NCBI RefSeq assembly: GCF_055900595.2 | Contig: NZ_CM148325.1 | DNA: 64,000 nucleotides | Strand: one strand, 5' to 3' | In this document: positions 56,756 through 60,149 of the stretch, in pieces | Numbering within the stretch: position 1 is the stretch's first letter | Layout: every line of letters starts with the position of its first letter | Notes under the pieces: model-generated | Database searches by the model: none | What the model was told of the DNA's origin: nothing | What the model saw: the letters and a program-made list of their open reading frames with translations, nothing else | Program-made: the position numbers and the translations under genes

Positions 56756-57478
56756 TTAATCCTGCAACGCATAGGTTACGGTGGTGACTACGCGTACCGT
56801 TTTATTAATCGCCGTAGGATCATCTTCATCACTGCCACTGGCGAAGATCTGGAACACGCCTTGTGAGGCATCGCTAATTGACCCCACCTGGCTACCTGAG
56901 TCCGTTGCAAATTGTAATGCTGCGTTGCGTGCATCTTTGGTGGCGGCGGCAATCATCTCAGCGCGCAGTGCGCCAATACCATTAAAGCGATAGGCGACTT
57001 TGCTCTCAGCGATAGCGCCCTCCGTAGCGACTTGCAGTTCGTTTAATTTCGCGACGACTTTTTCGACAGCAGCAACATTATGGGTTTTTATCGTCACTGA
57101 CCCGTCTGCGTTATAGCGTGGCATTGTGGGATCATCTTTCAGATAAAAGGAATCTGTTCGCTTGCTTGTCCATTGGCCCAGGGTTATCTCTTTCTCGTTA
57201 ATCCCCTGAGCATTGAGTTCGGCAACAATTTTTTTCTGCGCGTCTTCCAGTTTCGGGAACAGTTCGCCGGGAATATTACCCTTAAAGTTAATCGCAATTG
57301 TTAATTCTGCCGTATCTGCGCGAACTTCTTTTTCAGAAAGCCCACGCACATTTACATAACGGTTATTGGTTTTCAAATGTTTAACACCATCGCCAACAAA
57401 ATAACCACAGGCGCTAATCCCCAGTCCGAGGACGATAGCGGCAATTAAAGAGGGGGCCTTATTCACTGATGACTCCAT
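56756..57478 (-). CDS. SIMPL/DUF541-like putative lipoprotein
   Basis: C-terminal ~240 codons of track ORF 56756..57925; ATG at 57478 (MESSVNK...) or, better supported, GTG at 57466 with GGAG 6 nt upstream giving (M)NKAPSLIAAIVLGLGISAC lipobox signal; family call from recalled SIMPL architecture. Confidence 0.55.
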   Translation of the reverse strand: MESSVNKAPSLIAAIVLGLGISACGYFVGDGVKHLKTNNRYVNVRGLSEKEVRADTAELTIAINFKGNIPGELFPKLEDAQKKIVAELNAQGINEKEITLGQWTSKRTDSFYLKDDPTMPRYNADGSVTIKTHNVAAVEKVVAKLNELQVATEGAIAESKVAYRFNGIGALRAEMIAAATKDARNAALQFATDSGSQVGSISDASQGVFQIFASGSDEDDPTAINKTVRVVTTVTYALQD

Positions 57479-57717
57479 ATCAGATGCTAAATGAGCAAGG
57501 GAATGTAGTGGAGAGAGGGAGTGAAAGACAGTCCGATTCAGGAGTGTGGCCGACAGCATATCGGCCACATTTTTGTGCACAGAAAACCCCCAGCTAGGCT
57601 GGGGGTTCCGGAAAGCTTTCAGCTTTGAGCCAGTTATTAAAACCCCTTTTGATTTGTTAAAACACCTTGCGGTCTGGCAACTGCAAGTGTCAAACAAGAA
57701 ATCAAAAGGGGGTCCCA

Positions 57718-58176
57718 ATGGGGGACGAAAAGAGCTTAGCGCACACCCGCTGGAACTGTAAATATCACATAGTTTTTGCGCCGAAATACCGAAGACTGGC
57801 GTTTTACGGAGAGAAGCGTAGGGCGATAGGCAGTATTTTGAGAAAGCTGTGTGAGTGGAAAAGCGTACGGATTCTGGAAGCAGAGTGCTGCGCAGATCAT
57901 ATCCATATGCTTGTGGAAATCCCACCCAAAATGAGCGTATCCGGCTTTATGGGATATCTGAAAGGGAAAAGCAGTCTGATGCTTTACGAGCAGTTTGGGG
58001 ATTTGAAATTCAAATACAGAAACAGGGAGTTCTGGTGCCGAGGGTACTATGTCGATACGGTGGGTAAGAACACGGCGAAGATACAGGACTACATAAAGCA
58101 CCAGCTTGAAGAGGATAAAATGGGGGAGCAGTTATCGATTCCATATCCGGGCAGCCCGTTTACGGGCCGTAAGTAA
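57718..58176 (+). CDS. tnpA: IS200 transposase TnpA (HUH/Y1 family)
   Basis: Track ORF 57667..58176 trimmed to ATG at 57718: MGDEKSLAHTRWNCKYHIVFAPKYRR...HIHMLVEIPPK...; HUH motif (HIHML) and catalytic-Tyr region recognisable. Confidence 0.92.
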   Translation: MGDEKSLAHTRWNCKYHIVFAPKYRRLAFYGEKRRAIGSILRKLCEWKSVRILEAECCADHIHMLVEIPPKMSVSGFMGYLKGKSSLMLYEQFGDLKFKYRNREFWCRGYYVDTVGKNTAKIQDYIKHQLEEDKMGEQLSIPYPGSPFTGRK

Positions 58177-58252
58177 CGAAGTTGAATGCAAATGTCAGAT
58201 CGTATGCGCCTGTTAGGGCGCGGCTGGTAACAGAGCCTTACAGGCGCATTTG

Positions 58253-58276
58253 AAAAACCTCCGGCTATGCCGGAGG
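58253..58276 (-). terminator. intrinsic terminator 16 nt downstream of sppA stop
   Basis: minus-strand stem cctccgg / ccggagg with 5-nt loop followed by UUUUU; may lie inside the IS200 right end. Confidence 0.6.
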
Positions 58277-58292
58277 ATATTTATTGCAGGAT

Positions 58293-60149
58293 TTAACGCA
58301 CGTTGGCGCAGGTCAGGCAAAACGCATAACGGTTTTGTGGGTCGTTAAACGCTGCCAGCTTGTCGCTTTCACTTTTAACGGTAGAGGCTACCGAGGCCAG
58401 CGGTGCAGGTAACATGGCCTGGAACGCATCTGGCAACATTGCCCGGACAGAACCAGACATATTGTCCATCACTTTGTCGAAGAAGGTCGGTTCATCAACG
58501 TAGTATTCCAGATGCCACTGTTTCACTTTTGCCAGCTCTGCCGCTTTGGCAACCGCATCATCGAAATCCCCGAGACTATCGACCAGCCCGTTAGCTTTTG
58601 CATCCTGACCGGTCCAGACGTGGCCCTGGGCGATTTTATCAATCTGCTCCGGCGTCGAATGACGCGCATCAGCAACCAGCGTGATAAAGCGTTTATAGCC
58701 ATTCTCAATGCTTAACTGCATCATCTGCTGCGCTTCCGGCGGCAGTGCCTTGGTGATAGAAACATCCGCTAGCGGTGAAGTTGAGACGCCATCGGTATGA
58801 ACACCAATCGAATCCAAACTATTTTCTACGGTAGTGATCACGCCGAAGATACCGATAGAACCGGTCAGGGTGCTGGGGTTAGCCACAATGTAATTAGCTG
58901 GCGTGGAAATCCAGTAACCACCAGATGCCGCCATGCCGCCCATCGATACAACCACCGGCTTACCCGCTGCCCTGGCTGCTGCCAGTTCAGCGCGAATCAC
59001 TTCAGAGGCGGTAACGCTGCCGCCAGGGCTATTAACACGCAGAACAATCGCTTTCACTTTCGGGTCAAGGCGAGCGTCGCGGATTTGTGCCGCAGTGGTA
59101 TCACCGCCAACATTCCCCTGAGTTTCCTCGCCATCCATAATTGCGCCATTAGCGAAGACGACACCGATACTGTCACCGGTATCTGCCGGCGTTTTCAATG
59201 CGTAATCGTAATAACTGATGGCGCGATAATTTTTATCAGTCTTACTCCAGCCGAACTCTTTGGTCAGAGCTTTTTCGATTTCGGCACTTGATGCCAGTGC
59301 ATCGACCAGCTTGTTTTCCAGCGCATATTTCGCGGTATCGCCACCGGTTTTGGTTAAACCCTTAAGCAACCCTTGCGCACCAGGGAATACCTGCTGAGCA
59401 GGGATCTGCCGGTTAGCGGCAACAGTATTCAGATAGTTTTGCCACAGCTCACCGATCCAGCGGCTGTCAGCTTCGCGGGCTGCCGGTGACATATCATCAC
59501 GAATAAACGGTTCAACGGCAGATTTATACGTACCCACGCGGAACACATGGGTGGAAACTTTCAGCTTATCCAGCAACGATTTGTAGTACAGGCCGTTGGT
59601 AGCAAAACCGTGCAGATCCACCACGCCTTGTGGAGATAGCCAAATTTTGTTGGCGAAACTGGCGAGATAATATTGCCCCTGGCTGTAGTTCTCGCCTATG
59701 GCATAAACTGGTTTCCCGCTGTCACGAAACTCTTTCAGGGCTTTGCCGATGTACTGCATAGACGGCTGGTCGCCGCCTGCGAAGTTTTTCAGATCCATCA
59801 CGATACCGGTGATATTGCGGTCGTCCTTCGCCTGGCGAATGGTGTTGACGATATCAAACAGTGAGTTTTCCTGCAGACGATCGGAACTGGCACCAAGCAG
59901 CTGGCGGCTTAGCTTACTAAACCGCTGAGAACTGTCGGGTTTATCGACGATTACACCAGATATGTCCAGCAGCAGCGCGCCACGACTGGCCGTTTCTTTC
60001 GAATCACCACCACTGACCTGCATCCAAATCCCCACACCAACCAGTACGAGAAAAATAAAGAACAGGTTAAGTACCATTTCACGGACGAAATTCAGCAGAC
60101 GCCACGTCCATTTAAAAAATCCGGCAATAAATCGCCAAAGGGTTCGCAT
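58293..60149 (-). CDS. sppA: signal peptide peptidase SppA (protease IV)
   Basis: Track ORF 58293..60161 trimmed to ATG at 60149 ([38 protein letters not shown]...); 618 aa. Confidence 0.95.

Follow-up and report, generated by a model that had tools for sequence, protein, structure and literature searches.

The window, i.e., the whole 64,000-nt stretch of contig NZ_CM148325.1 (RefSeq assembly GCF_055900595.2) that was analysed, carries a 711-bp insertion sequence (IS) between two minus-strand genes, sppA and the SIMPL-domain protein gene downstream of it (Table 1). The original prediction named this element an IS200, and the protein, the RNA and the annotated copies all agree. Its transposase, TnpA, matches Pfam Y1_Tnp (PF01797) with an E-value of 9.1e-37 over model positions 2-121 of 121, and the catalytic residues H61-I62-H63 and Y125-x3-Q129 can be read from the translation. 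The full-length Rfam model STnc490 (RF01405) is matched with 146.4 bits (gathering score 56, E 2.5e-31), and hairpin 2 forms positions 1-23 of that match. The window is E. coli DNA, and its region 57480-58300 matches eight complete E. coli genomes at 100% identity, including the annotated IS200; in those eight genomes RefSeq gives the gene order pncA, ansA, SIMPL-domain gene, tnpA (IS200/IS605 family), sppA, ydjA. The sppA gene adjoins the SIMPL gene in 943 of 5,425 E. coli genomes, nearly all of which have no insertion there. The insertion is rare: among 5,426 complete E. coli genomes, which contain roughly 10,400 chromosomal IS200 places, exactly 8 have an IS200 at this junction. The left-end palindrome occurs only once in the window, so the idea of a second IS200 copy there was rejected. 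Because each defining feature of the IS200 group that gave a clear result is present, the finding is known biology: the element is an ordinary, standard, IS200C-like copy of the IS200 group, and its kind is already known.

Table 1. Features at the sppA-SIMPL junction, with positions counted from the first base of the window.
Feature	Position	Strand	Description or basis
SIMPL-domain protein gene	56756-57466	-	RefSeq; same strand as sppA and downstream of it, with the IS now in between
Hairpin 1	57545-57553 / 57561-57569	+	Arms TGTGGCCGA / TCGGCCACA; 9-bp stem, 7-nt loop; inverted-repeat search, DNA fold
T5 tract, host	57570-57574	+	TTTTT directly after hairpin 1, 5' of the IS left end; target pentanucleotide
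IS200 (IS200C-like) element	57575-58285	+	711 bp, GTGCACAG...GGAGGATATTTATT; runs G...ATATTTATT
Left-end leader	57575-57584	+	10 nt, GTGCACAGAA; G-initial and GAA-ending in all subfamilies
Left A-rich run GAAAA	57582-57586	+	Putative guide by analogy with IS608/ISDra2 (PMC3333891)
Hairpin 2, left-end subterminal	57585-57607	+	Perfect 10-nt arms 57585-57594 / 57598-57607; inverted-repeat search, fold
tnpA 5'UTR / art200 (STnc490) region	57585-57708	+	Rfam RF01405
Fifth hairpin	57643-57658 / 57696-57711	+	16-nt arms, 94% complementary; inverted-repeat search
tnpA	57718-58176	+	152-aa Y1 HUH transposase; RefSeq WP_000502112.1, IS200/IS605 family transposase
Hairpin 3, IS-internal	58204-58213 / 58240-58249	+	14-nt arms at 93% complementarity if extended; inverted-repeat search
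Right A-rich run GAAAAA	58252-58257	+	Directly 5' of the right-end hairpin; putative guide by analogy
Hairpin 4, right-end subterminal	58258-58265 / 58269-58276	both	AAAAA ahead at 58253-58257; terminator-like on both strands
Right-end tail	58277-58285	+	ATATTTATT; ends in the right cleavage site TTATT
sppA	58293-60149	-	RefSeq annotation of the identical region, ORF list; transcription now enters the IS at its right end

The original prediction held that the hairpins at both junctions left the IS ends ambiguous, and it proposed a comparison with an uninterrupted locus. Such loci read ...GGCCACATTTTTGCAGGATTTAACG between sppA and the SIMPL gene; in strain S6 and in an O157:H7 genome the empty site is ...GTGGCCGACAGCATATCGGCCACATTTTTGCAGGATTTAACG..., and the empty joint is CACATTTTT followed directly by GCAGG. 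These sites lack the insert, so the window contains exactly 711 extra bases. The left flank and the insert share a terminal TTG, which leaves the sppA joint, taken alone, free to move by up to three bases, but copies at other loci remove this freedom. For example, the sequence common to the copies at oppF-yciU and araE-ygeA is exactly G TGCACAG...ATATTTATT, ending in GGAGGATATTTATT, and the next base is A and C at these two copies and G in the window. The empty joints predicted for the oppF and araE loci were both found in other genomes at 100% identity and full coverage. The right end GGAGGATATTTATT is invariant in more than 50 IS200/IS1541 copies from Y. pestis, E. coli and other species, and all four bases occur next to it. 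This fixes the element at 57575-58285, without a target duplication: removing exactly 711 bp restores the empty sequence at three independent loci with 100% identity. Its ends (GTGCAC... and ...TTTATT) form no terminal inverted repeats. With three empty sites and more than 50 right-end junctions, both ends are placed to the nucleotide, so the ambiguity is gone, and hairpin 1 falls to the host while hairpins 2, 3 and 4 fall inside the IS.

All four of the hairpins claimed in the original prediction were recovered as inverted repeats. When folded as single-stranded DNA, hairpins 1-4 have energies of -10.6, -11.7, -14.1 and -10.0 kcal/mol and z-scores of -5.7, -4.8, -3.2 and -6.6, with 0 of 200 shuffles as stable in any of the four cases. 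Hairpin 1 does have the plus-strand terminator geometry ascribed to it, its arms being followed by the T tract. The consensus terminator scan did not call it on either strand, in the window or in the empty site; we attribute this to greedy stem extension through G-T and A-T pairs, which takes in the T tract, as the geometry itself is present. Hairpin 2 is the perfect palindrome that it was said to be, but the limits proposed for it (57586..57604) lie slightly inside the true ones. The 10-bp stem of hairpin 3 (58204..58249) also exists, but its fold is not unique, since two local hairpins rival it. Hairpin 4 has an 8-bp stem with seven G-C pairs and a 3-nt loop, and it reads CCTCCGGCATAGCCGGAGG then TTTTTCAAAT on the minus strand. 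Its A run, its minus-strand terminator geometry and its distance of 16 nt from the sppA stop codon (58293-58295) were all confirmed. It folds nearly as well on the minus strand (z -6.0) as on the plus strand (z -6.6), and the scan calls it terminator-like on both. Hairpins 2 and 4 each also have the geometry of a transcription terminator. A fifth hairpin, which was absent from the earlier list, lies between hairpin 2 and tnpA.

The two IS-end hairpins are alike. The left one reads GAAAA-CCCCCAGC-TAG-GCTGGGGG and begins 10 nt inside the end, and the right one reads GAAAAA-CCTCCGGC-TAT-GCCGGAGG and stops 9 nt inside the end. If the element is numbered with nt 1 at 57575, the left palindrome covers nts 11-33 and the fifth hairpin nts 69-137. 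Ellis 2015 (PMC4513863) places the left-end terminator of IS200 at nts 12-34 and a stem-loop at nts 69-138, so our numbering of the terminator is one base apart from the published one. The same paper describes the left-end palindrome as a bidirectional terminator that shields tnpA (PMC4513863). We therefore equate hairpin 2 with this published left-end hairpin and presume, by analogy, that it would be a binding site for TnpA on the top strand. The position of the fifth hairpin in the sequence identifies it as the known Shine-Dalgarno-sequestering stem-loop of IS200.

For hairpin 4, the original prediction left two options: host DNA abutting the right end, or a structure supplied by the IS. The comparison of loci identifies it as the subterminal hairpin of the IS right end, because empty sppA-SIMPL loci do not contain it and other copies end with it. 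Every other IS200/IS1541 copy that we examined ends in hairpin 4 plus ATATTTATT, with a variable base after it. If hairpin 4 were instead the native terminator of sppA, the IS would have to end before 58258. Its perfect minus-strand terminator geometry just past the sppA stop codon makes that idea attractive at first sight, but uninterrupted loci pass straight from CACATTTTT to GCAGGATTTAACG without the hairpin. Moreover, an identical hairpin and tail end the copies at oppF, araE, gapA and more than 50 Y. pestis sites, and in distant relatives the hairpin covaries with the element. We consider a host origin of hairpin 4 to be extremely improbable.

Hairpin 1 raises the converse question. It could be the element's own upstream terminator, with a left end that is longer than we have drawn it: megablast matches to other copies reach 14-27 nt to the left of 57575, and in every copy a hairpin with a T tract occupies this place. 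These upstream hairpins vary in sequence from locus to locus, however, and they stay behind in empty sites, where they include the oppF, araE and sppA terminators. The extra BLAST extension reflects only the common occurrence of a G+C-rich 3' arm and a T tract. We consider a longer left end to be extremely improbable as well. Hairpin 1 itself is unchanged in the two uninterrupted loci (L001 and L002), which identifies it, together with its T5 tract, as host DNA and as the insertion target.

Relatives of the element were collected by TnpA protein similarity (79 loci, from 100% down to 52% identity). A regular-expression search for divergent right ends in our first locus set gave only two variants, and the protein-similarity set supplied the diversity. 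Many compensated variants preserve the pairing of both end stems, among relatives with as little as approximately 52% TnpA identity. Across 19 aligned right ends, the pairing of hairpin 4 is complete (100%), and one position covaries between U-A, A-U and C-G. The right A-rich run is conserved as GAAAAA or GAAGAA, and the guide and target sequences are invariant among the relatives sampled. Hairpin 3, which lies after the tnpA stop codon and ahead of the right-end hairpin, is conserved and structured. Pairing in its long stem reaches 89.5%, and six pairs differ on both sides; the two local alternatives (58206-58221 and 58235-58245) are 92-100% paired, also with compensatory changes. The same alignment thus supports both forms, and hairpin 3 could be either the 10-bp long-range stem or two local hairpins.

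The insertion also affects what follows sppA. K-12-type strains have no SIMPL gene, and a consensus terminator, GTGGCCGACAGATCGTCGGCCAC-ATTATTTTTT, lies downstream of their sppA and on the sppA strand. The orthologous hairpin of the SIMPL lineage gives a better alignment when inverted (score 36 vs 26), and its T tract is on the strand opposite sppA. A terminator scan found no consensus terminator in the 115-bp sppA-SIMPL spacer of the empty site. Since the host T tract faces away from sppA, hairpin 4 (CCTCCGGCATAGCCGGAGG-TTTTTC) is the only consensus-type intrinsic terminator that follows sppA on its strand in the window. The left-end hairpin also has TTTT after it when read on the sppA strand. 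Judged from these structures, the IS most likely supplies the terminator of sppA and blocks read-through into the SIMPL gene. In all eight genomes with this insertion, read-through from sppA probably no longer reaches the SIMPL gene.

To see where such elements insert, we scanned one genome per species for the left-end palindrome, which gave 120 loci, including loci from Y. pestis, Vibrio, Brenneria, Mailhella, Oxalobacter, Bacillota and Peptococcaceae assemblies. Almost every left-end leader (approximately 10 nt) is directly preceded by a G+C-rich host hairpin and a T tract on the tnpA strand, and the hairpin differs from site to site. The original prediction had said that IS200/IS605 elements are often found next to terminator-like structures, and these approximately 120 independent left ends, which come from many phyla and nearly all adjoin a host hairpin, agree with it. 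The protein-selected loci have the same arrangement. At 121 unique junctions, the five bases abutting the left end are TTTTT in 53 cases, TTATT in 18 and TTGTT in 11, the rest being other T-rich variants. The 45 nt upstream fold with a mean energy of -18.6 kcal/mol (n=121), compared with -8.4 for random sites and -7.0 for T5-matched sites. A fold of -15 kcal/mol or stronger is found in 83.5% of left-end flanks vs 17.7% of T5 sites outside long ORFs.

The distance from the foot of the host stem to the insertion point peaks at 6-7 nt and is 5-11 nt in 95 of 109 cases, when measured from stems closed by a G/C pair (48 of 157 flanks contain no perfect stem). Distances taken from plain minimum-free-energy structures were dropped, as upstream A runs pair with the T tract and confound them. 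The right end of the element has the same shape as its targets, i.e., a hairpin and then 9 nt ending in TTATT, and in Y. pestis other IS copies have inserted directly after a right end or one T later. A few insertions at T-rich pentamers have weak hairpins (L108, L121 and L024), and L108 and L121 look intragenic, although the stop-to-stop ORF test used for this is noisy and calls, for example, the araE site. A host hairpin is therefore not strictly required: it is strongly preferred or strongly retained, but not obligatory.

The sppA locus offers a natural comparison of orientation. In Eco_23-3511, which has a K-12-type locus where the sppA hairpin is opposite in orientation to that of the window, an independent 711-bp IS200C follows ...GTCGGCCAC-ATTTTT, again 6 nt from the stem and again on the strand with the T tract. 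Since it lies on the T-tract strand, this copy is co-oriented with sppA, whereas the one in the window is antiparallel to it. For IS608 and ISDra2, a family preference for the lagging-strand template has been described (PMC3333891). In our set, 77 of 90 loci have the top strand on the G-rich strand (p = 3e-12), which fits that preference but is confounded with the strand bias of genes and terminators, and Eco_23-3511 goes the opposite way: over 40 kb, GC skew on the strand with the IS top strand is -0.022 in Eco_23-3511 and +0.028 in the window. As far as the sequences of these two sppA loci can tell, orientation is set by the strand with the local T tract and not by the replication strand.

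We are highly confident in the joint explanation, in which an intact 711-bp IS200 inserted 3' of a host hairpin and its T5 tract, the hairpins are assigned as above, and the mechanism and the effect on sppA are as follows. In IS608 and ISDra2, the Y1 transposase binds subterminal hairpins on one strand only, and a short guide 5' of the hairpin foot reads the cleavage sites (PMC3333891). By analogy, the transposase here would bind hairpins 2 and 4 on a single-stranded top strand. The A-rich runs GAAAA and GAAAAA would act as guides, pairing with the host TTTTT at the left end and with the element's own TTATT at the right end. A host hairpin and T tract could be used as a target because they resemble the right end, or because the T tract is kept single-stranded. 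The element would then insert on the strand with the T tract, approximately 6-9 nt past the foot of the hairpin, and the right-end hairpin, read on the minus strand, would stop sppA transcripts from continuing into the SIMPL gene.

How the association with terminators arises is a separate matter. Our tentative proposal is that IS200-group transposases home, with a precision close to one nucleotide, to DNA shaped like an intrinsic terminator, since this shape of a G+C-rich hairpin and, approximately 6-9 nt further on, a T-rich pentamer mimics their own right end; the T-tract strand, and not the direction of genes or of replication, would set the orientation, and each right end would be open to a further insertion; we think this possible rather than probable. 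The other explanation is that the transposase is blind to the hairpin, and that a preference for T-rich targets combined with the survival of harmless insertions produces the pattern. By this reasoning, sites just after terminators would be neutral, and tnpA would be shielded there from read-through. Target choice in IS608 and ISDra2 needs only a short guide-complementary sequence (PMC3333891), and a preprint (10.1101/2025.07.22.666184) reads upstream terminators as limiting transposase expression, which fits this explanation. The existence of insertions with weak hairpins, which tend to be intragenic, fits it as well.

Several observations are harder to reconcile with survival alone. A comparably strong upstream hairpin is far rarer at T5 sites outside long ORFs than at left-end flanks, and insertion points fall within a narrow range of distances from the stem foot. 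The target hairpin in the window terminates no co-oriented gene, so a transcriptional role is not what was selected there, and the right end, which has the same shape, is itself reused as a target. In Y. pestis, where many genes are disrupted by other IS families, the target rule is still seen. With evidence on both sides, we regard an origin by T-rich preference and survival as somewhat doubtful.

For annotation, both boundaries of the element are settled at single-base resolution, with the terminator that follows sppA assigned to the IS and the terminator-like hairpin upstream of the element assigned to the host. This bears on how annotation pipelines delimit IS200, as they otherwise tend to absorb the host terminator. 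The target rule also helps to explain how a nearly dormant IS can persist without harm. Should the transposase indeed recognise the hairpin, this would make it a natural protein with a DNA shape, and not a DNA sequence, as its target. Terminators would then be a genome-wide safe-harbour niche for the IS200 group across phyla, and each insertion would donate a new terminator-shaped right end that is itself targetable. A 2025-26 preprint reports the general enrichment at terminators. The target rule at nucleotide level, the right-end mimicry and the orientation test were not found in the literature searched, older IS200/IS1541 work aside, so the structural rule, the mimicry and the orientation test might be new.

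The closest known systems are IS200 of Salmonella, IS200C of E. coli and IS1541 of Yersinia. Like these, the element has a single tnpA encoding a 152-aa Y1 HUH transposase, a length of approximately 707-711 bp, neither terminal inverted repeats nor a target duplication, a left-end perfect palindrome that acts as a terminator, and the STnc490/art200 region. Its right end is identical to that of Y. pestis IS1541 over the hairpin and tail. Compared with Salmonella IS200, for which 707 bp is quoted against 711 bp here, nothing of substance differs.

Group IIC introns are the best-known terminator-homing elements. They are mobile, and their homing sites are on the 3' side of intrinsic terminator stem-loops, where an insertion does the host no harm. 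They differ from the IS200 group in being retroelements, in which the stem-loop is read by the intron RNA and a reverse transcriptase, and their sequence and chemistry are unrelated.

IS608 of Helicobacter pylori and ISDra2 of Deinococcus radiodurans share with this element subterminal hairpins at both ends and one active strand (active here by analogy), as well as a short guide sequence 5' of each hairpin foot (putative here). They also have in common with it that insertion takes place 3' of a short specific sequence and duplicates nothing, and by analogy cleavage away from the hairpins would be shared as well. Unlike those two, the element has no tnpB and has a 10-nt left-end linker, and its target is a T-rich pentamer (TTTTT, TTATT or TTGTT) in place of TTAC or TTGAT. 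That target almost always lies 6-9 nt after a host hairpin, an arrangement undescribed for IS608 and ISDra2. REPtron/TnpA-REP, ISPpu9 and IS1397 likewise use extragenic G+C-rich hairpins as landmarks for insertion or processing, and REPs resemble the ends of IS200/IS605 elements (PMC3333891). Unlike the hairpins of these REP users, the target hairpins described here are each unique and have no common sequence, so that only their shape and T tract are held in common.

The hairpin that follows sppA appears, from comparison of the sequences, to be inverted between strains with a K-12-type locus and strains in which a gene for a SIMPL-domain protein lies downstream of sppA (the two genes adjoin in 943 of 5,425 genomes). 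In K-12-type strains this hairpin is a terminator of consensus type for sppA, and the T tract lies on the same strand as the gene; in SIMPL-gene strains the hairpin has its T tract on the opposite strand and matches the K-12-type hairpin better in reverse (alignment score 36 vs 26). The K-12-type terminator has itself received an IS200: strain Eco_23-3511 carries an independent 711-bp IS200C there, in the same orientation as sppA, and a second copy 14 kb from it on the same strand, immediately behind the terminator of gapA.

Where host and IS meet at the left end of the window IS200, the sequence comes close to being a palindrome, with 90% complementarity between TTTTTGTGCA and TGCACAGAAA: the final part of the left-end leader is complementary to a stretch made up of the host T tract and the first bases of the IS.

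Dickeya undicola (locus L058) has a solo left-end palindrome with no IS body, bordered by leader copies in inverted orientation (GTCTATAGAA ... TTCTATAGAC) and lying between runs of T and of A; this may be an extended palindrome that remains from an IS200 or a miniature derivative. In distant IS200 relatives (TnpA identity about 60-65%), an additional structured module of about 70 nt, which reads GTTAGGGC...GCCCTG, GAGTTTTTCGCTGATCCGAAAAACGG, separates the host T tract from the left-end hairpin.

Coordinates of hairpins, IS copies and left-end features
Feature	Locus	Position
Post-sppA hairpin with T tract, SIMPL lineage	window	57545-57574
Post-sppA hairpin, K-12-type	L003	1469-1491
Region of IS200C, Eco_23-3511	L207	1501-2240
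Regions of IS200C, Eco_23-3511	L208	20001-20740; 33823-34534
Host-IS junction	window	57570-57585
Rfam STnc490 match	window	57585-57708
Region around solo palindrome, D. undicola	L058, minus strand	about 2120-2175
Region of additional ~70-nt module	L175, L177, L187, L189, L197, L204	about 395-500

IS1541 copies stand in tandem in Y. pestis NCTC5923. At three loci (L072, L073, L075) the right-end tail ATATTTATT of one copy is followed without a gap by the left end of the next, and at two (L089, L119) one extra T lies between this tail and the left end of another copy. In three further Y. pestis copies (L100, L113, L126), unrelated sequence occurs no more than about 640 nt from the left end, which suggests interruption or truncation by another element.

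The Rfam STnc490 match in the window lies on the tnpA-sense strand, although art200/STnc490 is described as antisense to the tnpA 5'UTR (Ellis 2015). It appears to be the structure of the sense strand that the model represents.
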